DNA of 64,000 nucleotides from Macrostomum lignano (Eukaryota), in contig NIVC01003589.1 of NCBI GenBank assembly GCA_002269645.1, forward strand, positions 1 to 64,000, given 5' to 3'. The translations under genes and the position numbers were made by a program. The notes beneath the pieces are model-generated. The model made no database searches and had not been told where the DNA came from. It saw only the letters and a list, made by a program, of their open reading frames with translations. Within the stretch, counting starts at the first letter, position 1. Each line of letters begins with the position of its first letter. Below, in pieces: positions 23,117 to 55,840 of this stretch.

Positions 23117-23468
23117 AATGTCGTTACAATACGCTTTAAGACTTTAAGACTGCATTAATAGATATTTTTACGCATGGTATTTTGCTGTGTGGCGGGTGGG
23201 TGATAGCGGAATGGGTATGGCAGCTGTTTCTTGTCATAGCGCGAGCGGTGTGTGCAGCATAGAGAAAAAAGCTTTTGCCCAGCTCAACCCTAACTAGCTC
23301 AGAAGATCCCTTGCCTAGCTTCAGAAACGCCCATTTAGTTCCTTGTTTAAACCCCCAGCCTTTTTAACCCCCAGCTCTTTCAGCAGTCTTCCTAGATCTT
23401 TCCCAGGCAACCCCAATCAACCATTAATAGAAAATACTGGCTATAAGTAGAAAATCTGCGGGTTTCCC

Positions 23469-23548
23469 TTCTAGAATTCGAATTCTAGAAAATTCTAGAA
23501 CAAAAAGAGAATCCGTGGATTCCCGAGCCCACACCAATGGTATATATA
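23469..23548 (+). promoter_or_regulatory. Putative Pol II promoter: heat-shock element, CCAAT and TATA upstream of ORF 23666
   Basis: TTCtaGAAaaTTCtaGAA (23483-23500) plus TTCtaGAA (23469-23476); ccaat at 23534; tatatata at 23541. Confidence 0.6.
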
Positions 23549-23665
23549 CAGCCGATTCACACCGCCCCTCGCTTCACCCTGCCTGCTCCGCCTCGCCTCG
23601 CCCCGCCTCAACTCGCTGAGCCAGCAACTTCTTATTTTTGACTTGCTTAATCTCTGGATCTTGCC

Positions 23666-24289
23666 ATGGATGAAGAAATGCAAGCAGGCAACAACGTTTA
23701 CAACCAAAATCTGGAGAACTTCATAAAGGCTGTATTTTTTAGTAAAGATCTCGACAGCTGGAATGTTTGGGCCGATAAATACAATGCAATTGCTCGGTCA
23801 CCAATCGTGAAGCCAACTATCAATGGACGGCTAGCGAAAACTACCGACAAGCAATTACAAATCGGCAAGGCTCTGGACGAGTTGCGCACGGCCTACAAAA
23901 CCAACAGTGAGCCTGTGCCAGTGCATTCTCTAGAAGAATTTATGCAGGGAACATTTACGATCGACGCAGTGCTTGTACAGATTGCCAACCTTCATAAGCT
24001 AGTTGAACGGCATGGTAAGCATGGCTTTGCAAACGGTCTACAGCTCGGCAGGATCTTTCTGAGAATGGAGCGGGTTCTCAGTAAGGAACAGTTCAACGAG
24101 CTGAAAAGACGTGCACCGTTCACCAGCCAGTGGACCAACTTTCTGATGAAATTGGCTGACCAAGCTGAGAAATATCCGGTGCTACAAAGATCTGCAATGT
24201 CCCTGCACAAGCTGAAGTCGATGATTGCATACTTGCCAGAGGCCCTTGCGATGCTGCAACAGGAAGTGGACGAAGGCTTGTTGTTTTGA
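23666..24289 (+). CDS. 207-aa helical protein, putative DNA-binding (DUF3102-like pattern)
   Basis: Intact ORF; LQLGRIFL...F..L...F....NFLMK aligns with the ORF at 54912. Confidence 0.6.
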   Translation: MDEEMQAGNNVYNQNLENFIKAVFFSKDLDSWNVWADKYNAIARSPIVKPTINGRLAKTTDKQLQIGKALDELRTAYKTNSEPVPVHSLEEFMQGTFTIDAVLVQIANLHKLVERHGKHGFANGLQLGRIFLRMERVLSKEQFNELKRRAPFTSQWTNFLMKLADQAEKYPVLQRSAMSLHKLKSMIAYLPEALAMLQQEVDEGLLF

Positions 24290-24377
24290 CTTTTAAATTA
24301 GCAATGTATTGTTTATTTAGCAACTCATGAAGCTATAATAATAGCAAGTTATCCTTGGATAGTTACTAATGTTGACA

Positions 24378-25710
24378 CCAACCTCAAATTTTAAACCAAT
24401 GGTTTCATTTTCTGGGGTGGTTGTTTAACAAGTATGCCATTTTGATTGCCCACCTCAAATTTTGAAACCACTGGTTTCATTTTCTGAGGTGGGTGTTTGA
24501 TTAAAATAGCAAATTTGCTTGAGACAGTGTAGACAAATGTTTCTGCTGGAAGCAGTGCAGAACTCAGACCACCCACCTCAAAATTTGAAACCAACGGTTT
24601 CATTTTCTGAGGTGGTTGTTTGACTAGGAGAGCGTAGAAGAAAACGGAGGGATCACCCAGAAGGTTGTACTTTGTAGAGTGTAGACGTAAGTTTTAAAAA
24701 TCAAACCCTTGGGAGAGCGTAGAAGAGATCACCCACCTCAAAATTTGAAACCAGTGGTTTCATTTTCTGAGGTGGCTGTTTGACTAAGCTCGGGAGAGCG
24801 TAGAAGAAAACGGAGCGGCTAGTTGTGGAGGCTAGAAAAAGAAAGACCCCTCCCGCCCGGCTCAACCCTCAACCCTCTGCAATTCTCTTTTTTGGCTTTG
24901 GCGCTGCACTGCACAGAAGTGAATTGCAGAGGGAGGGTGGGTGGAGAGAGAAGGGGGGACTTGTGGTGGAATGCGCGGACTGCATGCAGTGAGTGGCAGG
25001 GCGGGTGAGAACTGGATAGCGCAGCAGTGTAGACCCACCTCAAAATTTGAAACCAGCGGTTTCATTTTCTGAGGTGGCTGTTTGACTAAGGTCGGGAGAG
25101 CGTAGAGCTAGTTGCGGAGGCTAGAGAAGCAGTGCAGAACTCAGATCACCCACCTCAAAATTTGAAACCAGCGGTTTCATTTTCTGAGGTGGCGTGGCGC
25201 CCCTGTGCAAAGAGAGCCCAGTGCTCTGGCCCGGACTGTTGGGGAAGGGAAAGGGAGAGGAGCTCAAGGGGAAGGAGATTTCAGTACAACGGGAGACTCA
25301 AATTTCCCAGGCGCCTCTCTACCCCCAGCGCGAGATCGCTAGTGTTATGTTTGACTAAAAATAGAATGAGCTCGGGAGAGCGTAGAGCTAGTTGCGGAGG
25401 CTAGAGAAGCAGTGCAGAACTCAGATCACCCACCTCAAAATTTGAAACCAGCGGTTTCATTTTCAGAGGTGGCTGTTTGACTAGGAGAGCTTAGAGAGAG
25501 CTAGTTGCGAAGAGAGGCACCCAGAGGACAGGCTTGGAATGAGAGGCGGTGGGGCAAGACGGGTGAGAGAAGGGCTGGCCTGAGAGTTGGTCTACCCAGA
25601 CCCCCCGGCCCTCTCTGGGGGTTGGGAGGCTAGAAAAAGAAAGACACAAGCGTCTTTAGGGGATCACCCACCTCAAAATTTGAAACCAGCGGTTTCATTT
25701 TCTGAGGTGG
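24378..25710. repeat. Array of eight 43-bp imperfect palindromes with variable spacers
   Basis: Consensus ccacctcaaaatttgaaaccagcggtttcattttctgaggtgg at ~24378, 24450, 24574, 24734, 25035, 25150, 25430 and 25668. Confidence 0.92.
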
Positions 25711-25852
25711 CTGTTTGACTAGTTGTGGAGGCTAGAAAAAAAGATACATGCAGAACTGGGCGGGGTGTTCAGTGTGGTGGGACTGGGGAGAAAAAGCAGG
25801 CGCTCACCCAGAAACCTTTTATATTGTTGCAAAGTTTAGACCCTGCACATAC

Positions 25853-26158
25853 GGGGTTGTAGCCTAGTGGTTAGGGCGTCGGACTCACGACTTGAATGAA
25901 GGTTGGGGGTTCGATTCCCGATCCCCCTGCAACAATGTGTCTTTGAGCAAGGCACTTTACTCCGCATTGCTTCAGTTCACCCAGCTGTAAAATGGGTACC
26001 AGCATTAGCTGGAGTAATTGAGGGTGTGTGTGGCGACCCCCAGTCCTTGGACTGAACAGCCGCACGCAGCCTTCAGATGCGCCGCGCAATAGCTGCGGCT
26101 GAGCTGTCGGTTGCACATCTGCCCATTGGGCAGGTGTAATCAATTATTATTATTATTT
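25853..26158 (+). mobile_element. tRNA-derived SINE with a CORE-like central domain
   Basis: A box tagcctagtgg (25860), B box ggttcgattcc (25908), tgtgtctttgagcaaggcacttt...ctgtaaaatggg resembling the CORE domain, (ATT)n tail; no clear TSD. Confidence 0.8.
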
Positions 26159-26483
26159 ACCTAAGATAGGTATTCTGTCTTCTGCTGCATGCTCTGTTGT
26201 TGCCACGTTGCTTACCACATGAAAAACTATAATAAACTAATAAACTATATAGCGACTATAATCTGTCGCTTCAGTCCTTCAGTTGTTTATCAATGTAAAC
26301 TGTTCAGCAGTCTTTCTAATTCGTTATTTGGCTGCGCAATACAAAGGAAAGAAAGGAAAGGAAAGGAAAGCACGCGTGGAACTTGTACATTCGAAAAAGC
26401 TGCGCTCCCTCAGCAAATAGCAGTTACCCCACCCCTTTTCAAAATGCAGCTGTTGCGCTTGGCTGCGAATAATCTTTCCCGAC

Positions 26484-26975
26484 TCAAGCGCCTCTCTCAA
26501 CCCCCAGCTCTTTCAACAGTCTTCCCAATTCATTGTTTGGAGCACACAAAATAAACCCTGCTCCCGTGCGTCCGCCCGTGCACCAGCCCTCTCTCATCGT
26601 ACACCCGGCTTCAGCGTCAATTCCTAATCCCAACTTTGTCTTACTAAAAATAACAGCTTTAACTAGCTTCCGAGCGATCGACTCACGAAATCCGCTTGAA
26701 GCCCCTATATTGTCTAGTCTCTTAAGCATTTCTTTGTCCCACCGATTCTTCTCCTCAGGAAAATCTCTATACTTGATGTCATGCCACATGCAGACAGAGT
26801 CTAGCTCGTTCACAGGCTCATGCCCAGGATTTGGATTATTGTTTCCATCCAGCTGTATTTCAAGTGGATTCAAAGGCCCGCAATATTTATAGCCGGGAAT
26901 TGTCCAGCCTTTGTTTGGATGAGGAAGCTTTTCTATCAGTCCATGTAAATCTAACTTACCACCAGAGTGTTGCAT
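26484..26975 (-). CDS. PLA2-domain protein, family A
   Basis: IPGYKYCGPLN loop; ELDSVCMWHD. Confidence 0.78.
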   Translation of the reverse strand: MQHSGGKLDLHGLIEKLPHPNKGWTIPGYKYCGPLNPLEIQLDGNNNPNPGHEPVNELDSVCMWHDIKYRDFPEEKNRWDKEMLKRLDNIGASSGFRESIARKLVKAVIFSKTKLGLGIDAEAGCTMREGWCTGGRTGAGFILCAPNNELGRLLKELGVERGA

Positions 26976-27005
26976 TATTTTATTTTAAATTTTATTTTAA
27001 AAAAA

Positions 27006-28045
27006 ATGACAGATCAGAAACTTAAAAAACTCTACTACAGCGACAAAGGATTCTTTGTAGGAAAAAATGCAGTCACCAAACTCGCAGAACCAAGCAAGGA
27101 ACCAAAAGCTAGAGTAGAAAAGTGGCTCTCTAAGCAGGCTGTCTTTCAAGTCTATTTCCGACCAGTAAAATTTACAAGACCTCACTTTAGCATCTATAAT
27201 TCTAATGAAGCGCACCAAGCAGATCTTTTGTTTCTCCCCAATGACTCGGGCTACAAGTATGCTCTCACAATTACAGACATTGCTTCCAGATATAAGGAAG
27301 CTCGCCCACTCAAGACGAAGAAGTCAGAGGTTGTTCCCAGCGCACTGCAAGATATTTATAAAAACTCACCCATTAGTTACCCTGAAATTTTTATGACCGA
27401 CCCGGGTAAGGAATTCATGGGTGCAGTGAAATCCCTTATGGAAAAGCACAATACAGAGATTCGCTATGGCAGAACAAACTTGCACAGAGACCAAGCGTAC
27501 GTTGAGAGATTCAATCTAACTCTAGCCAAGAGGCTATTCACTAAGCAGACAGCTAAAGAGCTGAAACTAAAAAAAGTGGTCAGTACTATTCAAAATGGAC
27601 AGACCGGCTCCCCACTGTTATAGAGCAACTGAACAATGAAGTCACACGCATGACTGGATTGAAACCATCCCATGCAATTAAACAAGACACTGTCGAACTT
27701 AAGGCATCTCATAGAACAGACAACAACACGACAACCCCACACAACACACACAACACAAAACACACCTCGAACTACCCTAAGCTTCCAGGAGTTGAATCAC
27801 CATACATACTGACAAACTCTGAGTTTCTACGCTTTTTATATCTACCTGGAGAGCTAGAGAAGGACACCAAAAGAAGAGCTACAGATCCATACTTCAGCCT
27901 TGATGTGCATAAAATAGACAGACATTTTACCTCCGACTCCGGTGACTATTACTTTTTATCTCAGGCCTTTAACCCTAAATCCCCCACACGGTCATTCACT
28001 AGAGCTGAACTCCTAGTGATACCAGCTGACACGAAAATTAATTAA
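27006..28045 (+). pseudogene. Retroviral-type DDE integrase (Polinton INT), one frameshift near 27590
   Basis: HQADL, ITDIASRY, TDPGKEF, VERFNLTL; downstream frame WTDRLPTVIEQLNNEVTRMTGLKP. Confidence 0.92.
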
Positions 28046-28061
28046 AATATTAAAATAAAAA

Positions 28062-28517
28062 ATGACAAAGATTGAAACCAGAACCATTCATAAACTCAAT
28101 AAAATCATTGAATCAAAGAAACCAGGTCTTATATCAATTAAAGGTATCAAAGTAAAAATCGATCCCGTGCAGCAAATAGTTCAATGTAATGAGCAAAGAC
28201 ACAGCATCACAGATGAAAAGTCAGGAGGAATCCTACCATTAGCAGCTCTTATTCCGATCATTGCAGGCGCTGTAAGTGCCGCAGGTGGTGTAGCTGGAGG
28301 TGTAGCAACTGCTGTTAAAGCTGGGAATGATAGAGCCCACCAGCTAGAATTGCAAAAGATTGCAAGAGATAAAGGTATAACAATTAAGGCAAGAGATGGT
28401 TGCCCGGATTTTGATGATTGTGATGATTGTGAGCATGAAAATTCTGTAAGCAAATCTGACATTGTCAAAGCCATCATGACACTGCACAATGCTGGGTTTA
28501 CAATAATGCGGATGTGA
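28062..28517 (+). CDS. Adenovirus pX/Mu-precursor-like core protein
   Basis: SGGILPLAALIPIIAGAV resembles the adenoviral pX segment RGGILPLLIPLIAAAIGA. Confidence 0.55.
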   Translation: MTKIETRTIHKLNKIIESKKPGLISIKGIKVKIDPVQQIVQCNEQRHSITDEKSGGILPLAALIPIIAGAVSAAGGVAGGVATAVKAGNDRAHQLELQKIARDKGITIKARDGCPDFDDCDDCEHENSVSKSDIVKAIMTLHNAGFTIMRM

Positions 28518-28658
28518 ATGTGAATGCGGACATGATGAGGTTTAAAACCCCACTTTATCCAGCTTCATAAACCTAGCGCTACTTATAGGATGTAGAAACA
28601 GTTCAACTTTTCTATCAGGGTGGTCACCCTCAAAATTTTTTTATATTTTAGAGAAAAA

Positions 28659-31600
28659 ATGCCAAAAGCCAATCCAGCAAAAGATTTAGTCAACAATTAT
28701 TTTTCAAAAGGCGTCTCATTTCAAGACAAAAGTAATTTACTAAGAGAAGCATGTAAACAAACGTTTAACACCGACCCTGGTCACCTGGGAAGCTATGAAA
28801 AACAGTTGGAAATCATCAATCAATTAGAATTCAACCAGTATGCGCCTATAAAAAGTCCTGCAAAGGAACACCAAGAAAGGAGTCGCAACTTAGTTAACAA
28901 ATACGAAACTCTCACTGGTGAAAAAGCAAAGTACCCACAAAGTAAGCAGGAACAAGAGAAATTAGAGCAATTAATCCATTTAAAAGAGTCGGAGCTTGCC
29001 ATTGAAGAGATTAATTTTGCACAGAGGAAGTTTACAGAACATTACATAGAGTACACAATCCCAATTAAGGATACCACCGCAAAAATCTACGACTATGAAG
29101 ACAGCATCCAATCAGTTGTTGATCACACACTCAAAACACGCAAGACCTTTAAACTACAGATATCATTCAAGATTGCGTTTTATATGCCTGCAAAACCCAC
29201 TGAGCATCTCGAGTATTACATGACAACAAAGGCAAAGCCATTCACCCCTACAGACACACTGGATCCTTTCCTTCAAGATGTCAATAAGAAAATTGAAGCG
29301 TTTACATCCAGAGGTTCCGGATGGGTCGTAGGAGGGATTCAAAGAGCGACTGTCATGGTCATGAAATATGACCCACTTAAAGCCTCCTCTTATATAGAGC
29401 TCCCGCATAAGCTAGCCGGCAAAAAAGCTTGCATAAATGTTAAAAATAAAGACAATTGCTGTGCTCTATGGGCAGTTCTTTCTGCACTTCTTCATGATAG
29501 TGTCCTTCACCACCCCGAAAGAACCTCAAATTATCAAAATTATTTCAACCACTATCTCATCGAATGCGAAAAGAAGGGAATCAGGTTTGACAAAGGAGGC
29601 TTGGCGATTTCTCAGATCCCTAAGCTAGAAGAAGTGTTTAATAACAAAATTAGAATCACAGTCTTTGAGTGGAGTGAAAAAACTGAGAAAGTTCAACCGG
29701 TCAGATGTAGCAAAGACATTTTAGATCCTGAGGGGAAAAGGCAGACTGAATTGGATCTTCTAGTGATTGGTAATTTACTAGAGAAGGCTCACTATGTTTG
29801 GATTAAAGATCTTTCAAGACTCATACACAAGCAGTTAAATAATCATCACGAGGCTGTTGCCATCTGCCGCTTGTGCCTTAAGCATTACAGTGGACCTGAA
29901 CGCTTTGAAAAACTAGCAGAGCATGAATTATCATGAGAGGATCACCCGACAAACTGCTCTCTTCCTTCAGCTGAAGAGAAATATCTCCGGTTTAAGAACT
30001 ATCACAAGATGGAAAAGCTCCCATTTGTTTTATATGCTGATTTCGAATGCTCAATCGTGCCGGAAACACAAAAACAAACTCAAACATGTCCCCAATTCAG
30101 TAGCATATGCCTTTATTAATACAAAAGGACTTGTTGAGTATAATTATTTCTTTGGAGAGCAGTGTGTGGAGCAGTTTATGTCCAGAATGTTAGAGTTGCA
30201 AAAAGTGATTAGCACCCTTCAACCTGTTCCAATAATGATGACTGAGGAGGATGAAAGCAATTTCCCATCACCAACTCATTGCCACATCTGCAGGAAACAG
30301 TTAACTTGCACTAATATTAAAAACCCCACCGTTAGGGACCACTGCCACTTTACTGGGAAATTTAGAGGTGCAGCGCATAACACCTGTAATCTAAAGCTAA
30401 AATCGAACATTCATGATCTAACGATATTTTGTCACAACGCAAAGAACTATGACATGCATTTAATAGTTGAAAAAATCGGCATGATTCCAGACATACACCT
30501 TGATTGCATCGCAGAGAACAAGGAGAAGTTTAAGTGTGTTGATATTTAACAGGATAATTTAGGTAAAGGTAAAATAAGACTGAAGGATTCATATCAATTT
30601 CTAGCTGCCAGTCTAGACGAACTAAGCAAGAATCTAAAAGATGAACAATGCAAGTAAAATTAACAACACTGATGAATCATTTAAACTTTTAAGAAAGAAA
30701 GGCTTCTACCCCTATGAGAATATTACTGGGTATCACGTATTTGAAGAAGGTTTACCACCACAGGAGAAGTTCTTTTCAAAGCTAACAGACTCTGGAATCT
30801 TTGACAAAGACTATGAGCACGCGAAGCATGTCTATAATTACTTTAATTGTCAAAACTTCTTCCAGTATCACCTGTTTCTACTGGCTGATGTGTTTGAAAC
30901 CTTCAGATACACCTGGTACACAGCATATGGCCTCGATCCAGCACATTATATGTCTCTGCCTGCCACTAGCTGGGAATCTTTGCTTAAAATGAAATGGGAT
31001 CAAGATCCAGATTGTTACATTGAACTTCTTACAGACATTGACATGTACAATTTTGTCGAATCGTCAAAGCGAGGGGGGATCTCAATTTGCACCCATGGAT
31101 ATGCAAAAGCAAACAATCCCTACATTGAATCTTACAATAAGGAGCAGCCCTCAAACTACATTACTTATTTGGACGCTAATAATCTCTACGGGTGGGCGAT
31201 GAGTCAAGATCTTCCAGTTAGAGATTTTCGATGGCTACCCTCATCAGAATTCAAATGGGACTTTTCATTGGCTGCCATTTATGAAGTTGATGTTTACATT
31301 CCACCAGAGCTTCACGACTATTTCTCTGACTTTCCACCCTTCCCAGAGAACATCAAGTGCCCGAAAATAATCGAAACTCCCAATGGAACTTGGCACCTGT
31401 CAGGAACAGAAAAAGAACATACAGAGAAACTAACACAGAATCTAAACAACAAGACACGTTACAAAATCCATTACAAACTGCTTCAGTATTTTATCTCACT
31501 TGGTTGCAGGGTCACCAAAGTTCACCGGGCTCTTACATTTACAGAGGAAGCGTGGATGAAACCCTACATTGATAAGAACACCCAGTTTAGGACCAAAGCA

Positions 31601-32441
31601 ACCAACGACTTTGACAAGAACCTCTTTAAGTTGGCCAACAACTCTGTCTATGGCAAGACTCTTGAGAATGAGCGGAAAAGAACAAACCTGAAACTTGTTA
31701 CCTCATCAGAGCCTGATGTTATTCAGGCAAATATGTCAAAGCCAACATTCAAAGAACTCCATATCTTTAATAGCTACTTAGGTGTGATCATATTTTACAA
31801 AACCAAGGTGACGCTGCGCAAGCCGATCTATACAGGTGTCACTGTTCTCGACGAATCAAAACGTCTGATGTACCAGTTCTTCTATGGCATGAAGCAGCAG
31901 TACAAGGATAAAATGAAACTCTTGTACACCGACACAGACAGTTTTATTATGGACATTCAAACAGAAGACATTTATCAGGACATGCTGCAGCAAAAAGAGT
32001 TGTTTGACTTGTCTGAGTATGATGAATATTGCAGGACACAGAATGGCGATCAAGTGTTTGACGCCACTAACAAGAAAGTGATTGGGAAAATGAAGGACGA
32101 GATTGCTGGTGACAGTCACTGAATTCATTGGGTTGAGAGCAAAGTCCTATTTTGTAAAATGTGAGTCGTCAGACCCAATTAAAAAATCAAAGGGAATTCC
32201 GAAACGTGTGGTTAGGAAGGAAATTAATGAAGCTGAATACAGAGACGCCTTGAATTGCAACAAAAAGACATCACATGAGTTCTCAAAGCTACAATCTAAA
32301 AACCATATTATTCACACAATTCAGCAAAAGAAGATTGGGCTATCAGGTGCAGATAACAAGAGATTCATTTTTGATGAAAACATTAACAGTCTACCGTTCG
32401 GGCACTGGAGATTAGGTTTAGGAGGTGGAGATTGGGTTTAG
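28659..32441 (+). pseudogene. polB: Full-length pPolB of the inner copy with several stops and frameshifts
   Basis: GSGW, YADFEC, DHCHFTG, HNAKNYD, KGFYPYE, YLDANNLYG, NNSVYGK, YTDTDS. Confidence 0.95.
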
Positions 32442-32504
32442 GAAATGGATATTGGGTTTAGGTTTAAGAGAAAGTTTAATAAACCTCATAAAAATGACAT
32501 AAAA

Positions 32505-32873
32505 ATGACGACAAACAACTTTCTTGAAGATTTGGCTAACGAACTGGAAATCCCAAACTTTAGAGGAATATTTATGAGGGACACTCTGCCTGATTTTCCT
32601 CTAAGAAAATAATGCGGCATCATGAACTTTGACACCACCGATAAGCCAGGATCTCATTGGGTTTGCTGGGTGATTGATCGCGATCGCAAGCACAAGTGTT
32701 ATTATCAATACTTCGATAGCTATGGGACGGCATTACCAGAAGAGCTAAGAAGTTTTATGAAGGGAATAAAGAATAAAAATATCTATCGCTCAGACTTTAT
32801 TCTCCAAGGTCTTAGCAGTGATATTTGCGGTGAGCTGTGCATGACTGTTTTGTATGCAATGACCAAAACATGA
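32505..32873 (+). pseudogene. Adenain-like protease with a premature TAA
   Basis: Copy of 20882-21247; GAA->TAA near 32609. Confidence 0.88.
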
Positions 32874-32916
32874 AAGACCTACAAGGAAATTATTCTTGGC
32901 TGTGTTTCATAGGGGT

Positions 32917-33585: not shown

Positions 33586-33599
33586 TTTTTTAAAGGAAA

Positions 33600-35027
<1,428 letters not shown>

Positions 35028-35040
35028 TTTTAAATAAACA

Positions 35041-36420: not shown

Positions 36421-36490
36421 CTTTTTAAATAGAAATTTATTTTTTGTTGAACCGCGAAAGCAGAAGCTCTCTCGCCCTCTTATCGATAAG

Positions 36491-43518: not shown

Positions 43519-43520
43519 AC

Positions 43521-46500
43521 ATGACTGTCTCCCAGGGCATCCACTGCTTGCAGGTCAACCTGCAGCACAGCATTGCTGCTTTAGTCAACCTCTTGAAGCA
43601 CACTGACCAATACGTGCCAGGGATTATCCTTATCCAGGAACCTTGGACGCTTAGGGGCAGCCCCCAACATGTCCCCACCGGCTACCAGTGTTTAACCGCT
43701 GGTACCCGGAAGGGAAACCTGGCACCAAGATCCTGCATCATGGTGTCCAGTTCTATTAACGCATGGCTCAGATCAGACCTGTCCACCAGGGACATCTGTG
43801 TCATCCAGTCTGAAGACATACTCCCTGGGAGGACTACCCTCATCGCCTCGGTTTACCTACCGGGCGACGGCGAGATGATCCCAGTAGAGCTTGTCACACT
43901 GGTCGAGCTCTGCTCCACCAGAAACTATGAGCTGCTCGTGGCAGGTGACATCAATGCCCACCACACCCACTGGGGCAGTTCTGATATAAACCAGAGAGGT
44001 GAAGACTTCCTGGCTTATATTGCTACTACAACCCTTGAGTTCTGTAACTCGGGTAGTACCCCTACCTTCAATAACGGACGCCGATCGGAGGTGCTGGATG
44101 CCACCCTCGCCACGCCCAGGCTCTTCCGGAGCACTAGGGAGTGGCGGGTGCTTCCTGAGGCGTCCCTCTCCGATCACAAGTTCATCTCTTTCACGCTGGC
44201 CAGCGCCCGTAACGCAGGCCAGCTTTACTGGAAACGGAATGCTAGGAATACCGACTGGACCGCCTTCAGGCTTGCCCTGGAGGAGACCTATCGTTGCACT
44301 AGCACTCCAGTCTCCATCAACACCTGCGAAGAAGCAGATGAATTTGCGGCCGCACTTACGGACTCGCTCACTGCTGCCTTCGAAGCCTCATGCCCACTAA
44401 AGGCATATAAAGGCAAACAGTCGGCCCCATGGTGGAACCCGCAGCTTGGCGACCTCCGTCGCAGAGCCAAAAGGCTTCACCGCAGGGCCCAAAAAACTAA
44501 AAACCCGGCCGATCAAACCGCCTACCTGAACTCTATCCACGAGTTCAAGAGGCAGGTTAGGAACGCCAAAACCAACAAGTGGCGCGAATACTGTGAGGAA
44601 CTTGAGGGCTCCCGCCCCACCTCCAGAATCGTTAAAGCCCTCACCCTGGACAAAATGTCCAAACTCTCCTCAGTCAAGAGAGCCGACGGCTCGCTCACTG
44701 AGAACCCAGGAGAAACACTGGAAGCGATGCTAACAGCGTTTTTCCCGAACGAGCCAGCCAGGCCCGACCCCCCTGACCACTCAGTGGGCGGACACGTACT
44801 GGCTGACTCAATCATCACGGAGGACCGCGTTACTAAAGCTGTCTCCTCCTTCAAACCCTTCAAATCCCCAGGACCGGACGGCGTTGTGCCAGCCTTCCTG
44901 CGGGAGGCGGTGAAATGCACCGGTTTCCTGCGGAACTTTGTCGGCTTCTGAAAGCTTGCATTGTGCTCGGCTTTGTTCCGAAATCCTGGACCGAGGCCAA
45001 GGTGGTCTTTATCCCCAAGCCTGGCCGACCGGACTACCGGTCCATTAAATCCTTCAGACCAATTAGCCTCACCTCCACATTTGTGAAGCTGTTAGAGAGA
45101 CTGGTGCTCTGGCGCCTCCTCTCTGTGGAACTGAAGAACAAGCCGCTCAGTGAGAACCAGCATGCCTTTCAGGCAGGCAGGTCCACGGAGAGCGCGCTTC
45201 ACGTTCTGGTTGACATGCTGGAGAAAGCCGTTCTTGGTAATGGCTACGCTCTCGCTGTCTTCCTCGACATTGTTGGAGCCTTTGATAGTGTCCTCTTTGA
45301 GGCTTTTGACAGAGCTCTACGTGCTAGAGGAACCCACTCGCACCTCACCCGGTGGATCATGTATATGATCAGCCACCGTACTGCCACCGCACACCTGTTG
45401 GGCCACCAACGGACGGTAACCGTCTGCAAAGGCAGCTCCCAGGGCGGTGTCCTCTCTCCAGTTCTCTGGAACATGGTCATCGATGAGCTCCTCCAGGACA
45501 GCCATCTTGACCCCATCCTCAAGGTCGGTTACGCCGATGATGTCACTGCCGTGGCATCCGGACCGTCACCTGAAACCCTTAGAGATCTTTTGCAAAACTT
45601 CATTCGCTCTGCTGAACGTTGGGCGGACAGGTGCGGCCTCAGGCTCTCCGAGACCAAAACTGTCGCGATCATGTTCACCAGCAGGGTAAACTGGCGTATT
45701 CGCCCACTAAAGCTTTACGGGGTGGAAATTCCATCCTGCAAGCAAACCAAGTGTCTCGGCGTTACGCTGGACCACCGGCTGAGCTGGTCCACCCACGTCC
45801 AGGCCAAAACCAAAAAAGCCCTCGCGATTCTTGCGCAGCTGCGCAGAGCCGTCGGCACCACCTGGGGCCTCACCCCAAAGCGTCTCTGGTGGATCTATAC
45901 CACAATGGTCCGACCGGCCGTTACTTACGCCGGCCTGGTCTGGACCAGCGCCTTGCAGATTAAAACCTGCCACGAAGCCCTCAAAAAGGTGCAGGGACGT
46001 GCGTGCCGCATGATCCTGAATGCCCCGCTCTCTGCTCCCTTTGACGGCCTCAACGCCTTTCTCTGCCTCCCGCCTCTGGACATCTTTGTCCGTCGCGAGG
46101 CTGCTAAAACCACCCGCCGGCTCATCGAGGCTGGTGTTAGCTTCAAGCCACAAAGAGCGATGGCGAAGCGCAAGCTCCTGCCGCACTCTGACCTGTGCCT
46201 TAAAGTTCTGGAGGAGAGTGGGAGTGCGGCTGTCCTTTCGGACGCTGAACCGCGCTCCCTCAATCTCTACCAACGCTTCAAGGTCACGATCCCCTCCAGG
46301 GAGAACGCCAACGACAGCTGGGCCCCTCAGGAGGTTCACTGCTTCACTGACGGATCCTCCAAAGACGGTTTATCCGGCTTTGGAGTCTGTATCCTTATCA
46401 ACGGCCGCGTGATTGCTACTCACGCCCAACACACTGGCAGACTCTCCAGCGTCTTCCAGAATGAAGTCCTTGCCATCAGCTCCTGTGCAGCTGAGCTCCA

Positions 46501-47224
46501 CTGCAAGGACTTCAAGGACAGTAGAATCTTCTTCCACTCTGACAGCCAGGCCGCTTTACAGGCCCTGTGTCACACCACTACGAACTCCCGAACAGCCCGC
46601 GACTGTATCGGGCAGCTCAACAAGCTGGCTCGGAGGAACACCGTCCGGCTCACGTGGATCCCAGGACACGCCGGCTTCAAAGGTAACGAGCTCGCCGACT
46701 CCCTCGCTAAGGCGGGCTGTTCCGGCTCGCCCCTTGGCCCCGTGCCCCTGGCCCCCATCCCCGCCACAGTCATTAATCGTCAGATTAACGACTGGGCGGA
46801 CATCCTGCACTTGCGCAGATGGGATGGTATCTCCAACTGCCGCCAATCTCGTGCGGCAGTGCCCAATCCGTCCCTCAAGCTGCGGAGAATCCTTTTGAAC
46901 CAAAATCGAAAAGATATCCGCGCTCTCACTATGACCTTCACAGGTCACGGTTGCTTTGCCAGGCACTGCTTCCTCCGATGTGTTTGCCGGAGTGAACTCT
47001 GCCCCTTCTGCAGCCTCGAGAATGAAGATGCCAAGCACTTCGTCTGCTACTGCCCGGCCTTCAACCGAGACCGGCTCAACCACCTCGGGCCCAACCCGTC
47101 CCTGGACGACGTTTGCCGGCCCGAGAACATCCCACGGCTCATCCGGTTCCTCCGGGCCACCAAGCGAGCCTCCGTCTTCCCCACCGAAGACAACGCTGCA
47201 GACAGGACCGGCAGACCTCCCTGA
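43521..47224 (+). CDS. LINE ORF2: APE-RT-RNase H-CCHC, single frameshift near 44925
   Basis: QVNLQH, GDINAHH, SDH; RPISLTS, FLDIVGAFD, QGGVLSP, GYADD; FTDGS, QNEV, SDSQAAL, GNELAD. Confidence 0.92.
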
Positions 47225-49884
47225 CCGGCCCCGCGCCCTAGCCTATGCGGGTCTTTCAGGGATTAGCGGAATGGGCGACGCTCGCCTCCCCGCTGCGTCT
47301 TCGGACCGCCCTGCAGCTAAGTCAAGTAAGTAAGTCAAGGACCTGGTGGCGTTGCAGATGAGCCTACACGCTCTGCCTTGGATCGTGTTGAGCAGGTCTG
47401 CATGGCTTTTGACCTGGGTAGCGCTAACCCAGACAACAGAGGCGTACGTAATGGCAGGTCTAACTACGGAAGTATAGATCCACCAAAGCCGCTTTGGGGA
47501 TAGACCCCAAGAAGTGCCAAGTGCTCGTCGGAGCTGGGCCAGGATGGCTGAGGCACGCTTGGCTTTTGCTTTCACGTGGAAGGACCAGTTGAGCCGGTGG
47601 TCAAGTATGACCCCGAGACATCTGGTCTGATGCGCGAAGGCAATATCTCTCCCGTAAAGCTGCAGATGTCACATGTTCCAGCGGATTCTGCTCGTGAACA
47701 TAATGGCAACAGATTTGGGCTCGGAGAGTTCCAGACCGTTGTCATTGGCCCAGGATTCTGCTTTGCGGATAAAGCTCTGCATCAGATCCCTGAGCGTGCT
47801 GGGGGACGGCCCAGCCACAATGGCAGTGACGTCGTCAGCATACCCGACTTTGAAGACGGGATCAGGTCGGGAGTCACCCAGAAGAGCGTCCATGACCAGG
47901 TTCCAGAGCGTCGGGGTGAGGACTCCGCCTTGGGGTCCACCCTTACAGACTCTGGCGGAGGCAGTTTGCCCAAGAAGTTAGGCAGTGACTGTACGGTTGG
48001 AGATCATGTACAAGATCCACCGTATGAGGTTAGCGTGAGCTTTGCGATTTTGCAGGGCCCTCTGAAACGCTTAAAAGATAACGTTGTCGAAGGCGACAAC
48101 AATGTCGAGAAAAAGAGCCAGGGCGTAACCGTCACCCAGTACCGCCCGTTCAATCTTCTCGATTATCACATGCAGGACGCTGTCAGTCGACCTCCCGGTA
48201 CGGAAGGCGTGCTGATTATTGCTGAGAGGCATTGCTGTCAGCTCGCATGAAATCAGCCGCCAGAGAATAAGCCTCTCAGTGAGATTAAGCATGGCTGACG
48301 TTAAGCTAATTGGCCTAAAGGCCTTGATGCTCTGGTAGTCACCCTTCCCAGGTTTGGGAATGAAGACTACCCGAGCTTCGGTCCAGCACTTGGGAACGTA
48401 TCCCAGCTGGATAGAAGGCCGCATGAGATTGCGGGTAAGTCTAAGGAACGAGGGTATCTTGGCTGCTTCACGAAGGAGAACAGGGTAGATACCATCAGGT
48501 CCAGGGATTTGAAGGGCTTGAAGGTTCTGACCGCACGAGCGATTAAGTCTTCAGTGATTATGCCCGCCGCTATGGTGGCTCCATCCATTGAGTGGTTGGG
48601 TTCCGATCTAGCGGTGGGTACCCTCGGGAAGAATGTGCTGAGCATATGCTGAAGCACTTCTTCAGGGTCTTTAGTAAGAGAGCCATCATCTTTTTTGATC
48701 ATGGCTAATTTGGACATTTTGTCCATTGTAAGGGCCTTGACAAGCCTAGAAGTAGGTCTATCTTGATCCAATTCATTGCAGAATTGGCGCCATTTACATT
48801 CCTTGGCCTTGCGCACTTCAGATTTGAAGTTGCGGTAGGCTTGTCGGAAATTCTCCATGTCCTCCGGGTTTCCAGTCTTCATGGCACGGCGGTGAAGGCT
48901 TTTGGCCTTCCGACTGAGTTTCCCCAGCTCCAGGTTCCACCACGGCGCCGAGGTCTTGCCTTTGTAGGCGCGAGCAGGACAAGCCGCTTCGTGGGCTGCA
49001 ATAATGCAACCTGTCAGCGTCTCAGCCGCTTGGTCCACATCCTTGCAGGTCTCAATCGGACGTAAGTCCGTAAGTTCCTGCAGGTGCAGATCAAGGGTAG
49101 CCTTATAGGCCGCTCAATCAGTGTTGCGGATGTTACGTCTCCAAGTAATCGAGGACTGGGGTTTAGTTTCCGCGATGTTAAAGGCGATAAAGCAGTGGTT
49201 AGACAGGCACGGCTCCACAGACCAGACTCTCCGCTCCTCAACTCTGTCAAAGAGTCTTGGGGTAACGAGTGTGGCGTCAAGGACCTCAGTCCATCTGCCA
49301 TTGTTAAAGGTAGGAGTGCTACCGCGGTTGCAGAGCATGAGGTTTGTGTTAGAGATAAGGGCCAGAAGCTCCTCCCCTCTAGTATTGGTGTCTTTGCTGC
49401 CCCAGTGCTTGTGGTGCGCGTTGAGGTCGCCCCCCAAGCACAGCTCAGCGTTCTGGGACTCGCAGTACTGCGCAAGGCGTAGTAGACTCTCGGGAGCAGG
49501 GTCTCTGTCGCCAGGGATGTAAATCGAGGCAACAAGACACGTACGCGGAGAGAGATGATTAGATTGGATGACACAGAGGTCTCCATCAGAGATATCAGTC
49601 CTCAGCAAAGCCTGGAGATGGCTAGCAGCGAGGATAGCCGCTCTAGGGCGGCTGTTCCCCGGGCCACACACATAAAAGTCAGAGTAGCCAGAGGGAATGT
49701 TGAGCAACTTACCGTTGCGCATCCAATGTTCCTGGATCAGGATGAGGCCTGGCCTGTACAGCTCAGCAATCTTCATCAGATTTACTGACACAGATACGCA
49801 ATGCTGTAGATTTATTTGAGGACAGAATGTCGCTCCTTTGGCAGCGTGGAGCTTAGTCATACTGTATTAAATGCAATTGTCTGG

Positions 49885-51461
49885 CTAGAGGCCCGGGCCA
49901 TCAAGGAGACTTGGACAGCAAATCGTCCTCGTCCCAGGCCGTTGGGGCTTGACTGGGAGATGGGAGTTGGTCGACGTCCATTGCCTCCTCACCCCCACCA
50001 GCCCCCCCCCCTCAGCAGAGTCCTCAGGCTCCGATTGACAGGATGGAGGAAGCTTCCTCATCTGCATCTTTGCCTTCAGACCCCACCAGGGTGGCCGAGG
50101 AGAGCTCGGATTCCGAAGACCCGGCCTCGTCCTCAACTCCTTCTCCGGCTGGCAGGTTCGGTTCTCGGGGCTTGGCCGGAGCCGTTACCGCGGTGGCCGA
50201 ACTGCTGCTAGCAGAGGGGCGAGATGCAGCTTTGGCTTTGGGATCGGCTTGCGCCTTTCCTTGGGCCTTAGACTGCGCCCGCTCTTGCCGGAGATGCCGG
50301 GGTTGGCAGAAGCCCTCCCTTTGGCAGACTTTCCTCGGCGCATCTTGAGCTTGAGGGCACCCAGCTTGAAAGAGGATCCATCAGGGTACCGACTCGCCCA
50401 AGCGTTGGAAAGGCCGAGGACAATTGAGTTGCCCGTCTCCCCCCTGCGGACTTTGCGGTGATACACCAGTCCACTAGCAGGGAGGTCGGGTTCAGACGCA
50501 GTAGGACCCGGCGGATAACGTCAGGTCCAGCTGCGGCGCTTTTAGCAGGGACAAACACCACATAGGGTATTGTCTTTGGACGCTGGCCTTCGCGAAGAAA
50601 AAGAGCTCCGCCAAGGTCAGCATCCAAGGAGACCGTCAGAAGCCGCTGGAGCAGCTGCTGAGCATCCTCCTCACTGCTGGGAGCAATAAAAACGAATGTG
50701 CTTCGCAGCACCATCCGCTCGATGCCGATGGAGATTCCCTCCTCGACAGTCAGCTCAATCAGATAGGAGTCAACAGCACTCCACACTTTTTGAAGCTGAC
50801 TAGTGGTCCAGTCCTGGTCGCGACCTTGAATGATCACTCCCGGGATTTTGGCCTTGGCCTTCGCCGCAAAGGTAGCTCCTTGTTGGCAAGGAACCTGGTT
50901 GTTGCTGCTGGTTGTTGGTTGTTGGTTGTTGCCAAGAAACCTCCTTGTTGGCAGTGGCCATTTGTTGCGCCGTGGTTTTGGCCTCAGCAGCCGCAGCAGC
51001 ATCTCCAGGGAGCGCCGCCGCTGAACTACTGGAGCTTCCACCGGCCGGCCCGTCTGGTTGCTTTGGGACGCCAGTCGCTTCAGTATTCATGCTGGACGCC
51101 GCCGCTTTGGCCCCTGCAGCTCCCTTCTTGGCCTGCCTTTTGGCGCGTTGCTTAGCGCGTTTGCGCTCAAGCCGAGCCCGCTGAGCTTCGTCGGATCTGC
51201 CAGATTTGGCCGGTCCTTTAGGCTCAGAGCTCGCGGTTCCCTTAGATCCACCAGCAGAGCTGGCAGGTCTTTGGGTACTTTGAGTTTGGTAGCTCTGGTC
51301 GGATCTGCCAGCAGAGCCAGCCGGTCCTTCCTTTGCCACAGATGAATCAGTCGGTTGGGATCTGCCAGCATGGCCGGCCGGTCCTTCGGACTGAGGTTGG
51401 GGTTTAGAAGGGTCCCCGTCCCTAGAAATAGGGTTTTATCCATAGTCGGCTCGAAGGCCAT
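49885..51461 (-). pseudogene. ORF1 of LINE B-1, frameshifted
   Basis: ORF pieces 51087-51461, 50800-51339, 50268-51041 and 49885-50136; distant similarity to the 41989 ORF1. Confidence 0.75.
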
Positions 51462-51982
51462 GATAAAGGTTGGTGGGCTACCCTCGAAGGGGCGCGGTAC
51501 CCACCCGGCCGCTCCACCTGACCGGGCAGTAGGCCAAAAAAACCCTCAAGGCTGGCCCGACACCAGGAGGGGGACCGCTTGCGACCGGACTACTCCCCAG
51601 CCTTCCAACCCATCGGTACGGTCGAAAACCTTAGGCATTAGATTTACCCCGTTGAGCAGTACCACAGCCTGCGGATTGGCGAGCCAGACCCGCATACCCA
51701 AGTTCGGCAAAAGCCACTGGATGGGTCACCAGCGCCGGTGCCCAGTCTGTCCAGCAGCCCTAGGGTCTGCCTTGAACACACGCGGGTACGAGTACCCTAG
51801 GTCGACTTGCGAGACAGCGTGGGGGGGGTCTGCGGCTGCCAGAGGCAAATAGAGGGTGCAGACGTCCCACCAGCCTTGACCTGCTGAAAATAGGGGCAGG
51901 CGTGAAGCATCGCAGACCTTAGCGCATGGGCCTAGTCAGTCTCATACTTCAGTGGCATGCTGAATACGCCTTCGCGCGCCTC

Positions 51983-53406
51983 GTTTTTGAGTTTGAGTTT
52001 CTGGCATGATTGAGCATTCGAAATCAGCATATACAACAAATGGGAGCTTCTCTATTTTGTGATATTTCTTAAACCGGAGATACTTCTCTTCAGCTGAAGG
52101 AAGAGAGCAGTTGGTTGGGTGATCTTCACAGGATAATTCATGCTCTGCTAGTTTTTCAAAGCGCTCAGGTCCACTGTAATGTTTAGGGCACAAGCGGCAG
52201 ATGGCAACAGCCTCGTGATGATTATTCAACTGCTTGTGAATGAGTCTTGAAAGATCTTTAATCCAAACATAGTGAGCCTCCTCTAGTAAATTACCAATCA
52301 CTAGAAGATCCACTTCAGTCCGCCTTTTCCCCTCGGGATCTAAAACGTCTTTGCTACATCTGACCGGTTGAACTATCTTAGTTTTTTTCACTCCACTCAA
52401 AGACTGTGATTCTAATTTTGTTATTAAACACTTCTTCTAGCTTTGGGATCTGAGAGATCGCCAAGCCTCCTTTGTCAAACCTGATTCTCTTCTTTTCGCA
52501 TTTATTGAGATGGCAGTGTTGAAATAATTTTGATAAATTGTAGTTCTTTTGGGGTGTGTGAAGGACACTATCATGAAGAAGTGCAGAAAGAACTGCCCAT
52601 AGAGCACAGCAATTGTCTTTATTTTTAACATTTATGCAAGCTTTTTTACCGGCTAGCTTATGCGGGAGCTCTATATAAGAGGAGGCTTTAAGTGGGTCAT
52701 ATTTCATGACCATGACAGTCGCTCTTTGAATCCCTCCTACGACCCATCCGGAACCTCTGGATGTAAACGCTTCAATTTTCTTATTGACATCTTGAAGGAA
52801 AGGATCCAGTGTGTCTGTAGGGGTGAATGGCTTTGCCTTTGTTGTCATGTAATACTCGAGATGCTCAGTGGGTTTTGCAGGCATATAAAACGCAATCTTG
52901 AATGATATCTGTAGTTTAAAAGTCTTGCGTGTTTTGAGTGTGTGATCAACAACTGATTGGATGCTGTCTTTATAGTTGTAGATTTTTGCGGTGGTATCCT
53001 TAATTGGGATTGTGTACTCTATGTAATGTTCTGTAAACTTCCTCTGTGCAAAATTGATCTCTTCAGTGGCAATCTCCGACTCTTTTAATTGGATTAATTG
53101 CTCTAATTTCTCTTGTTCCTGCTTATTTTGTGGGTACTTTGCTTTTTCACCAGTGAGAGTTTCGTATTTGTTAACTAAGTTGCGACTCCTCTCTTTGTGT
53201 TTCTTTTGCAGGACTTTTTATAGGCGCATACTGGTTGAATTCTAATTGATTGATGATTTCCAACTGTTTTTCATAGCTTCCCAGGTGACCAGGGTCGGTG
53301 TTAAACTTTATTACATACTTCTCTCAGTAAATTACTTTTTTTGAAATGAGACGCCTTTTGAAAAATAATTGTTGACTAAATCTTTTGCTGGATTGGCTTT
53401 TGGCAT
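51983..53406 (-). pseudogene. polB: pPolB of the outer family A copy, N-terminal part
   Basis: Near-identical to 28659-30070; ATG at 53406. Confidence 0.92.
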
Positions 53407-53547
53407 TTTTTCTCTAAAATATAAAAAAATTTTGAGGGTGACCACCCTGATAGAAAAGTTGAACTGTTTCTACATTCTATAAGTAGTATTAGGTTTATGA
53501 AGCTGGATATAGTGGGGTTTTAAAGCTCATCACATTCACATTCACAT

Positions 53548-53960
53548 TCACATCCGCATTATTGTAAACCCAGCATTGTGCAGTGTCATAATGGATTTGA
53601 CAATGTCAGATTTGCTTACAGAATTTTCATGCTCACAATCATCACGATCATCACGATCATCAAAATCAGGGCACCCATCTCTTGCCTGAATTGTTATACG
53701 TTTGTCTCTTGCAATCTTTTGCAATTCAAGCTGGTGGGCCCTATCATTACCAGCTTTAACAGCAGTTGCTACACCTCCAGCTACACCACCTGCGGCACTT
53801 ACAGCGCCTGCAATGATTGGGATAAGAGCTGCTAATGGTAGGATTCCTCCTGACTCATCTATAGCATCACATCTGTGATGCTGTGTCTTTGCTCATTACA
53901 CTGAACTATTTGCTGCACGGGATCGATTTTTACTTTGGCACCTTTAATTGATAAAAGACC
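53548..53960 (-). pseudogene. pX-like core protein, N-terminus removed by the deletion that also removed the integrase
   Basis: Homologous to ~28123-28517; joined directly to the AT-rich PLA2 upstream region. Confidence 0.75.
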
Positions 53961-53986
53961 TTTAATATTTTATTTTAAATAAAATA

Positions 53987-54480
53987 ATGCAGCGCTCTGG
54001 TGGTAACTTAGACTCACATGGACTGATAGAAAAGCTTCCTCATCCAAACAAAGGCTGGACAATTCCCGGCTACAAATATTGCGGGCCTTTGAATCCACTT
54101 GAAATACAGTTAGATAAAAACAATAATCCAAATCCTGGGCATGAGCCTGTGAACGAGCTAGACTCTGTCTGCATGTGGCACGACGTTAAGTATAGGGATA
54201 TTTCAGAGGAGAAGAATCGCTGGGACAAAGAAATGCTTAGGAGATGATACAATATGGGAACTTCAAGCGGGTGGAGGGAATCGATCGCTCGGAAGCTAGT
54301 TAAAGCTGTTATTTTTGGTAAGATAAAGTTGGGGTTGGGGATTTGCGCCGAGGGCGGGTGAACGGGGAGAGAGGGCGGGTGCAAGGGGAGAGAGGGCGGA
54401 GGCTCGGGAGCAGGGTTTATTTTGTGCGCTTCTAACAAGGAACTGCGAAGACTTTTGAAAGATGTGGGGGTAGAGAGAGG
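53987..54480 (+). pseudogene. PLA2-domain protein, premature stop at 54245
   Basis: Copy of 26484-26975. Confidence 0.78.
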
Positions 54481-54911
54481 CGCTTGAGACGGGAAGGGTT
54501 TAACTATTATTCTCAGCCTTTGCCAAACGCGACAGCTGCATTTAAAAAGTTTAGAAGCAGATGGAGGTATGTGGTTGATCGACTGCTATTTGCTGAGGGA
54601 ACGTAGCCCTCTAGTGGATTTCGCTTTGCTATGAATTTTTTCAACACAATCTTAGGAATGGAAAAAGTGGGGTTGGGAGTCTTTGCTCGTTTTGCTGGTG
54701 TTAGGTGCTTGCAGAGAGAGGGTGGGGGGTGGCTTGATCGATCGATTGCAACAGCTAGCAACAGAAAGTTCGCGTACATGTAGATATGTACATTTGAAAA
54801 CGTTTTTAGCTCTATATCTTCACTCGCATTATGCACTGAGAAACAGAAGCAACGGATTATAGTTTTTTATGTGTAACTACTTTACGCTTCTGCTGCTCTA
54901 CCGAAACCGAA

Positions 54912-55508
54912 ATGGCTTCTAGTTCGCCTATGGATGTCGATTGGCGTATAAAGCTGTCTGGCGAAACAGCGAAACGGAGACTATGCGAGGTCTTATCTGA
55001 GACTTTAGCAGAAATCAAGGATCCAGTTAGAGCTGCGGAGAAAAGACAAAAGATCGCAGAATTTTTCGGGCTTAACGAAGAGTCGCTGCAAATGGAAGTC
55101 CTCACTCTAACGCGGCGGCAGATGAAGGAGGCGAGCGATCGCAAGGCGGCGCTTGATGCAAAGCGGCGAGATAAGCGCAAAGAAGACTTCAAACAGAAGC
55201 TCATCGCCTCACGAATTCCCCAAGCGGATGTTGGGAACCCTGCCGGTGATGAAGGCGGTGATGTGGTAGAGCGTCTGCAGTGCGCTCTGCTTCGTCTGAA
55301 AAGGTCGCAGAAGAGTGGTCTGCATCATGCGCTCCAATGTGGAAAAATCTTGTTGAAATTTAAAGCCAGTAACAAAAAATACGCTAGAAAGGCACGAAAA
55401 CAGCATTATGACTATCTTCTTGCTCGAGTTAGCCTCAAGGTTTCATCAGCAAATCTTTATATGAAGTTTTTTAAGCTGAAAAGTGGAACGCTAATATGTC
55501 AATATTAG
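54912..55508 (+). CDS. 198-aa helical protein, distant homolog of ORF 23666 (possibly C-terminally frameshifted)
   Basis: ALQCGKILL...Y..L...L....NLYMK aligns with LQLGRIFL...NFLMK. Confidence 0.6.
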   Translation: MASSSPMDVDWRIKLSGETAKRRLCEVLSETLAEIKDPVRAAEKRQKIAEFFGLNEESLQMEVLTLTRRQMKEASDRKAALDAKRRDKRKEDFKQKLIASRIPQADVGNPAGDEGGDVVERLQCALLRLKRSQKSGLHHALQCGKILLKFKASNKKYARKARKQHYDYLLARVSLKVSSANLYMKFFKLKSGTLICQY

Positions 55509-55562
55509 TTGAAATCCTTGAGGATGATCAGTCATGGAAGCAACTTGTTTGAAAAATAGACA

Positions 55563-55840
55563 CTCTAGCCTGCTTCGGATTGGTCAGAAAAAGCCAACGC
55601 GTTGGCTTTTTTTCCTTTTGCAAGAGCAAACGAAAGATTTTTTATAGAAAGCGCTAGCCTGCTTCGGTTTGGTCAGAAAAAGCCAACGCGTTGGCATTTT
55701 TCCTATTGCAGAACACAAGAGAGAAATAGTTGTAAATGGTATAGTAATAATTTTTTTGTAAAATAATTTTGTAGTATACGGACGCTCTAGCTTGTTTTCG
55801 ATTAGCCAGAAAAGGCTAACGCGTTAACATTTTTCCTATT
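55563..55840. repeat. Three ~55-bp repeats containing the 24-bp palindrome aaaaagccaacgcgttggcttttt
   Basis: Copies at ~55563 (perfect palindrome 55588-55611), ~55654 and ~55785 (degenerate). Confidence 0.88.

Follow-up and report, generated by a model that had tools for sequence, protein, structure and literature searches.

Nematode Mavericks carry, between the left terminal inverted repeat (TIR) and the integrase gene, 2–5 kb of cargo that is poorly conserved and exchanged (10.1101/2022.07.12.499685), and accessory regions have been described in vertebrate Mavericks (PMC8097293). Conserved but unnamed “Adintoc” proteins are among the accessory gene products of adintoviruses (PMC8502044), antirepressor-like genes occur in coral polintoviruses (10.1101/2023.10.06.561300), terminal palindromes have been reported for protist virophages and Polinton-like viruses (10.64898/2026.07.28.741278), and a figure legend marks small repeat arrays and palindromes in mosaic polisuviruses (10.64898/2026.10.13.758929). 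The homologous regions (hrs) of baculoviruses act as enhancers and consist of imperfect ~30-bp palindromes in variable arrays (PMC4758234), and sopC of the F plasmid comprises 12 repeats of 43 bp that include a 16-bp inverted repeat, SopB being the helix-turn-helix (HTH) binder (PMC3597684). Here we analyze a 64,000-nt stretch of Macrostomum lignano DNA (contig NIVC01003589.1, positions 1–64,000; the window), which contains two nested copies, inner and outer, of one Polinton/Maverick family (family A; Table 1). In each copy, the slot between the PLA2 gene and a TIR (slot 1 in the inner copy, slot 2 in the outer) holds one open reading frame (ORF1 and ORF2, respectively) followed by an array of palindromes. 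The anatomy is real, homology of the two ORFs is probable, and a cognate pairing of each protein with its own array is plausible. Literature searches, which did not extend to subscription papers or Repbase, returned no description of a Polinton gene that has a palindrome array of its own downstream, and the accessible parts of PMC11071308 and PMC10748475 contain nothing on such a pair.

The two family-A copies are close relatives, as the first-pass annotation of this DNA had noted: seven of the ten homologous segments compared are 93%–98% identical, with lower values for the PLA2 gene (88%), its flank (85%), and the ATPase region (79%). The inequality of these values (79%–98%) implies that the copies are mosaics. 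The ATPase region (35036–35846 versus 18222–19032), at only 79% between otherwise 93%–98% identical copies, is a second exchanged module. The slots had been said to differ completely, which holds beyond positions 26399 and 54607 (between 23117–26398 and 54608–56066 no DNA is alignable save short matches) but not before them, where the PLA2 3′ flank remains homologous. Each slot has one long ATG-initiated ORF, as described earlier; ORFs of such length arose by chance in 6/2000 and 4/2000 Markov simulations of slots 1 and 2, respectively, and codon use in the slot ORFs is near that of the element’s own genes and unlike that of the retroelement. The proposal that the cassettes face opposite ways is correct for the genes, with ORF1 heading away from its own TIR and ORF2 toward its own, but may not extend to the arrays, which may keep their orientation.

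The variable slot itself is already known; it is the Maverick cargo region. It resembles that cargo in position, low conservation, and exchange between elements (10.1101/2022.07.12.499685; PMC8097293), lying in the interval that separates the left TIR from the integrase. In contrast to the intron-containing, host-type protease and kinase genes of high GC described as cargo, the slots hold short, uninterrupted helical ORFs with palindrome arrays, at a GC content of 0.36–0.50. On the TIR side of slot 1, 44 bp of the PLA2 3′ end recur in direct orientation (local alignment score 55, versus at best 41 over 200 shuffles), a possible recombination scar. Slot 1 also contains, outside the gene-array module, an insertion headed by a tRNA-like sequence (25853–25926; 30.8 bits, the only Rfam match), which is probably a short interspersed nuclear element (SINE).

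The ORFs had been proposed to be distant homologs from two aligned peptide blocks. Both blocks exist (9/34 and 5/21 identities), and the proposal finds support from family profiles but not from BLASTP, and Smith-Waterman shuffling is marginal (p 0.012–0.10 over four scoring settings). Searching 1.84 billion representative proteins with ORF1 gave five matches, of which four are usable, the only named homolog being the Macrostomum lignano protein PAA54076.1; the fifth, P0005, a 2890-residue repetitive protein matching residues 68–122 only, was dropped. A hidden Markov model (HMM) of the ORF1 family ranked ORF2 first among the non-self members of 1850 six-frame segments of the window (E 0.021). 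An HMM built from the four outside homologs without ORF1 again placed ORF2 first of the 1850 (E 0.024), so that the by-eye choice of the first reading is removed. ORF2 scores 11.5–11.7 bits with either HMM, versus about −1 when reversed, and no shuffle reached this score with either HMM (0/5000 global, 0/5000 local; ~5%–10% of shuffles gave no reported score). These sequence comparisons make it probable that the C-terminal domains, spanning ORF1 residues ~99–202 and ORF2 residues ~117–187, are homologous. The matched segments are basic (13 K+R versus 7 D+E, and 19 K+R versus 3 D+E).

An array of palindromes lies directly 3′ of each gene, and its sequence differs between the slots, in agreement with the first reading (8 × 43 bp versus 3 × 24 bp). 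The array-1 unit has 20-bp arms around a 3-bp center, with 17/20 arm pairs complementary in a typical copy and variation concentrated in the center; the units start at 24378, 24450, 24573, 24733, 25035, 25150, 25430, and 25668, an irregular spacing of 72–302 bp. The array-2 palindromes, at 55588, 55677, and 55810, show 0, 1, and 5 differences from the first, respectively. The distance from stop codon to first palindrome is similar in the two slots (88 bp for ORF1, 79 bp for ORF2). Array 1 is confined to slot 1, with no 43-bp match elsewhere in the window at up to 14 mismatches and no half-site outside the array at two mismatches. Outside slot 2, array 2 has one match in the window at up to seven mismatches (at 6337, with seven), and its core occurs elsewhere only as two 3-mismatch sites in a retroelement. 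No operator copy is present upstream of either gene, which disfavors simple promoter autorepression. A perfect 22-bp palindrome, unrelated to array 1, is located at 23469–23490, ~175 bp upstream of ORF1. Both arrays fit two-fold symmetric double-stranded DNA sites, and array 1 also fits hairpins. Array 2 behaves as a double-stranded dyad site and not as an RNA hairpin, since none of its three copies folds better than shuffles (z −1.06, +0.81, and −0.97).

The AlphaFold2 model of ORF1 (five sequences) is all-helical, with a mean predicted local distance difference test (pLDDT) score of 76.5, block values of 78–93 over residues 101–207, and confident helices at 99–137, 140–149, and 154–169. The C-terminal domain is modeled as a long helix followed by an HTH-like pair, a helix-helix-turn-helix arrangement predicted with high local confidence. 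By its likeness to ParB-type domains, this arrangement may constitute an HTH DNA-binding unit. Comparison with solved structures gave no row above background for this fold: Foldseek returned no match at E 0.001 in PDB or BFVD, and the best VIA-align Z score, 6.5, is that of helical-bundle background (Raf1 rows, Z 5.2–5.4 over residues 87–206). The single-sequence model of ORF2 is unreliable over residues 110–165 (pLDDT <50), and its fold search gave no match. An ORF1 homodimer prediction scored 0.02, which is evidence neither way.

A likeness to DUF3102 proteins had also been suggested, and it may extend to the predicted fold, in both ORF1 homologs tested, but not to sequence membership. In ESM Atlas structure searches, which compare predicted with predicted structures over a short helical domain, DUF3102-bearing clusters made up 5/8 among the matches listed for homolog P0006 (TM 0.60–0.64), and the top match of homolog P0007 was a 95% DUF3102 cluster (TM 0.59 over 110 residues). 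Neither the ORFs nor the four homologs match the Pfam profile PF11300 at the gathering threshold, although an E. coli DUF3102 protein used as a control does. Against a profile of 92 collected DUF3102 domains (one gene located via PMC9927464), hhalign gave a single plausible register of 63–64 columns for the ORF1 family at E 0.016–0.064, which is not significant, with ORF1 and ORF2 ranking 32 and 40 of 109 window segments. The ORF1 family may therefore be built like the DUF3102 proteins of phages and plasmids, to judge from predicted folds, but no sequence comparison places it in that family; the function of DUF3102 is itself uncharacterized in the literature found.

The suggested analogy to parB does not extend to domain composition: Pfam finds no ParB N-terminal (CTP-binding) domain, and the ORF1 model is all-helical. 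The feature held in common is the clustering of palindromic sites near the gene. In the F plasmid, sopC lies downstream of its gene, giving the same gene-then-array layout. Overall, the locus resembles SopB/sopC and ParB/parS (PMC3597684) in combining an HTH-like protein, as modeled, with clustered palindromic sites, and differs in its spacing, which is irregular, in its eukaryotic host, and in lacking ParA and the ParB N-terminal domain. It also recalls ParZ and BpaB/PFam49 of Borrelia, which are small, possibly phage-derived, and bind DNA of their own replicon (PMC9712426; PMC2938228). A PFam49 profile (seven Borrelia sequences) ranked ORF2 first of 109 window segments (E 0.055–0.062; ORF1 family, E 0.22), a match that is not significant, and none of six supplementary files of PMC9712426 contains DUF3102- or ParZ-like terms. 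The hrs (PMC4758234) are similar as imperfect-palindrome arrays of variable copy number in a double-stranded DNA virus; unlike the hrs, which are spread over many loci, each element here has its array at a single place, linked to one gene, with a sequence that differs between near-identical elements.

Taken together, these comparisons are best fitted by a model in which the cargo slot of an animal Polinton would carry, in both variants, a gene from a single, divergent family encoding small helical proteins, together with an array of putative binding sites for the encoded protein. The protein would bind two-fold symmetric double-stranded sites through its HTH-like C-terminal domain, and several copies would load close to the element’s left end, building a nucleoprotein hub, specific to the variant, on a genome that is excised or replicating. 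Comparable in action to clustered parS/sopC sites or to an hr of a baculovirus, such a hub could give the cognate genome an advantage over co-resident relatives in maintenance, replication, or expression; protein and site would diverge together, and recombination in the TIR and in the conserved PLA2 flank would move the block from one subfamily to another. A variant-specific, cis-acting hub formed by each protein on its own array is the reading we favor, though at somewhat less than even chance. A stronger version, in which the locus would be a phage-derived, allele-specific “centromere plus binder” module, a plasmid-style incompatibility or identity system in animal Polintons, is rather unlikely; there, each protein would recognize only its own array so as to tether, replicate, package, or defend its genome versus co-resident relatives, with the module diversified by cassette exchange.

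Several observations weigh against the cognate hub. The two copies provide a single contrast, so linkage alone would explain the co-occurrence of gene and array. ORF1 and ORF2 are not significantly similar by BLASTP (E 4.6), and hhalign, although it returns the same register and places ORF2 first among the non-self members of 109 segments, gives a probability of 8%–11%, with a thin margin between ORF2 (E 0.0026) and an unrelated retroelement ORF (E 0.0079). ORF2 stops ~10 residues past the last matched helix, whereas ORF1 and its four homologs run ~40 further; its end comes soon after the putative recognition helix, and ORF2 may therefore be truncated. Neither ORF belongs by sequence to a Pfam, PHROG, or PDB family, and with an HMM made from the 92 DUF3102 sequences all members of the ORF1 family score <4 bits (HMMER). 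Downstream arrays are rare at bacterial DUF3102 loci, with at least three palindrome copies at 1/77 of the loci having at least 800 bp downstream, a comparison that is insensitive because the count metric sees only two palindromes in array 2. A ParA-type partner is lacking, the only family-A ATPase among the 22 window proteins scanned with Pfam being A32-type. Finally, three alleles of the Borrelia partition protein BpaB all bound the same DNA (PMC2938228), and thus allele divergence need not mean new specificity.

The principal competitor, to which we assign a lesser but substantial probability, is that gene and array are merely linked: the arrays would be hr-like enhancers or origins recognized by factors of the host or by other viral ones, the ORF would encode an accessory protein that has a different target, and the two would occur together because the whole cargo block was swapped as one piece. 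The known exchange and poor conservation of Maverick cargo (10.1101/2022.07.12.499685; PMC8097293), the mosaicism of the copies at the ATPase, and the enhancer role of the variable hr arrays (PMC4758234) are all in keeping with this explanation. So is a skeleton common to both arrays, recognized post hoc: read toward the TIR, both units show CTAG, 13–15 nt, and the same 8-mer immediately ahead of a 7-bp core arm, an arrangement that holds its orientation relative to the element and not to the gene. Center-anchored runs of eight were found in 60 and 65 of 10,000 nulls and at 3 and 7 of 804 other palindromes. The whole-array alignment of array 1 with array 2 is non-significant in either orientation, and the skeleton is therefore only a lead; if real, the arrays may descend from one ancestor whose cores diverged and whose orientation was kept while the gene changed side. 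The same 8-mer also occurs in 82-bp tandem units within the TIRs, which number 3.6, 5.7, and 2.5 at 22410–22708, 38317–38780, and 63625–63827, respectively. What linkage does not lead one to expect is that two unrelated blocks should carry probable homologs at near-equal distances from their arrays, on opposite strands.

Two further alternatives are each unlikely. If the palindromes were 3′ untranslated region hairpins, serving autoregulation, stability, or as a source of small RNAs, the module would operate at the RNA level. The first AATAAA lies past the array in both slots (26231 after ORF1, with an ATTAAA at 24500, and 55898 after ORF2), two of the three array-1 copies tested fold well (z −4.31 and −4.39; first copy, −1.60), and an Atlas feature search listed the phage translational repressor family PF01818 at 0.91–0.92, with low shared-feature counts. 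Set against this are the failure of array 2 to fold better than shuffles, an array-1 center of just 3 nt, and the structure-based Atlas rows, which indicate DUF3102 and not PF01818. Alternatively, the ORFs could be non-homologous, or ORF2 a decayed remnant, and their parallel a coincidence in a fast-turning accessory region. In this direction point the weak BLASTP, Smith-Waterman, and hhalign results, N-terminal halves that are unrelated, and the seven-residue gap required by the ORF1-ORF2 alignment. So does the failure to find a homolog of ORF2, either among 158 candidates of a single-sequence search or by tblastn versus phages. For the ORF1 family, a single-sequence search with ORF1 found none among 218 candidates, a profile search recovered only three of the family’s own members, the same profile gave 16 stretches in GTDB with none confirmed, and tblastn of homolog P0006 versus phages gave no match. 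PDB sequence searches gave none either. The ORF1-family profiles and their shuffle tests argue against coincidence. Least credible is a derivation of the arrays from leftovers of a separate small mobile element, or from recombination-site repeats that brought in the cassette, since, although Helitron 3′ ends have a hairpin followed by CTAG, CTAG or CTAA lies at a set distance from the palindrome (8 nt in 5/8 array-1 units, ~19–20 nt in 3/3 array-2 units), and CTAG density is raised (8.7–8.8 per kb versus 2.6 in the core), no copies occur elsewhere in the 64 kb, and neither ORF matches a transposase or recombinase family in Pfam.

Table 1. Coordinates in the window of the two family-A copies, their slots, and the slot contents
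Feature	Position	Strand	Basis
Outer family-A Polinton/Maverick, decayed	13616..56794	-	AGTAG...CTACT ends, identical 6-bp flanks, TIRs, Pfam
Inner family-A Polinton/Maverick	~22397..38819	+	TIRs, junctions, Pfam rve, PLA2, Adeno_PX
Inner left TIR, built with 82-bp tandem units	22397..23114	.	
44-bp direct copy of PLA2 3′ end (26490-26534), TIR side of slot 1	23358..23401	+	Local alignment
ORF1, 207 aa, all-helical, probable DNA-binding protein	23666..24289	+	AlphaFold2, homologs
Array 1, eight 43-bp imperfect palindromes	24378..25710	.	
tRNA-headed, ATT-tailed SINE-like insertion in slot 1, outside module	25853..~26160	+	Rfam
Inner PLA2 gene (26484-26975) and 3′ flank common with outer copy; inner limit of slot 1	26399..26975	-	PF08398, E 7.7e-14
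Outer PLA2 gene (internal stop) and common 3′ flank; inner limit of slot 2	53987..54607	+	
ORF2, 198 aa, basic (43 K+R), N-terminus coiled, unrelated	54912..55508	+	
Array 2, spacerless 24-bp palindrome in each of three 48-bp units	55565..55834	.	
Outer right TIR, includes duplicated minor-capsid gene 3′ end (56067-~56234)	56067..56794	.	

The window as a whole consists of nested, decayed Polinton/Maverick elements and non-long terminal repeat (non-LTR) retroelements piled together. The outer copy has the hallmarks of a Polinton: TIRs (13745–14428/56067–56748, 98.7% identical), AGTAG-type ends, and a 6-bp target duplication at those ends. It interrupts the pPolB gene belonging to a second family (family B), is itself split by non-LTR retroelements and the inner copy, lacks the integrase region, and has Pfam matches to a double jelly-roll (DJR) capsid protein, an A32 ATPase, and a C48-like protease. 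The inner copy (TIRs 22410–23114 versus 37881–38613, 91% identical) interrupts the outer copy’s pPolB gene. Its left end is eroded and lacks the terminal motif, and instead of 6 bp its flanking duplication measures at least 13 bp (22380–22410, 38810–38835). A third family-A end begins at 63583. Family-A copies are lodged in other Polintons three times (11517–13610, 13616, 22397, 56800, 63583), in the family-B pPolB gene, the family-A pPolB gene, and an apparent family-B integrase gene, and Polintons are possibly targeted by Polintons.

By Pfam, the family-A gene set comprises an rve integrase (E 1e-7), an A32 ATPase (Pox_A32, 3e-4), a DJR capsid protein (8e-4), a C48-like protease (0.03), a parvovirus-type PLA2, and an adenovirus pX-like protein, with the ATPase, capsid, and protease matches below the gathering score. 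Two pieces of the family-A gene that we take, from polymerase motifs in its translations, to be pPolB gave no Pfam match, and the family-B polymerase gene matches PF03175 at 3e-14. The PLA2 gene (26484–26975) and the pX-like domain (28062–28517) are separate genes on either side of the integrase, in contrast to the adintovirus PLA2X, which is described as fused. Some 170 bp of the minor-capsid gene end has been absorbed into the outer TIR, and the TIR/slot junctions of the two copies are therefore not equivalent. The minor-capsid 3′ end has been copied to the other terminus (56067–56234 versus 14260–14428, 98.7% identical), which suggests that the slot boundary can be reset when ends are copied in the course of replication. 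The family-B element apparently starts with a ~100-bp palindrome (10808–10909) bounded by AGTAGTAG/CTACTACT, which could be a collapsed end pair or a terminal hairpin. Another Polinton-like gene set, on the window’s left side, includes a 459-residue ORF with F5/8 type C (discoidin) domains (274–1653), a candidate fiber or receptor-binding protein. Non-LTR retroelement pieces (endonuclease, reverse transcriptase, and RNase H, from translations) lie inside Polintons at 4301–7887, 34002–34514, 40298–51985, and 61665–62234.

The known genes of Polintons serve replication, integration, and capsid assembly. The conserved “Adintoc” proteins of adintoviruses could include the ORF1/ORF2 family. If cognate specificity were true, ORF1 and ORF2 with their arrays would represent a first sequence-specific regulator/site pair for Polintons, and a partition-like module would probably have passed from prokaryotes to eukaryotes; if not, they would still add a new family to the accessory genes and could serve to mark the exchange of cargo.

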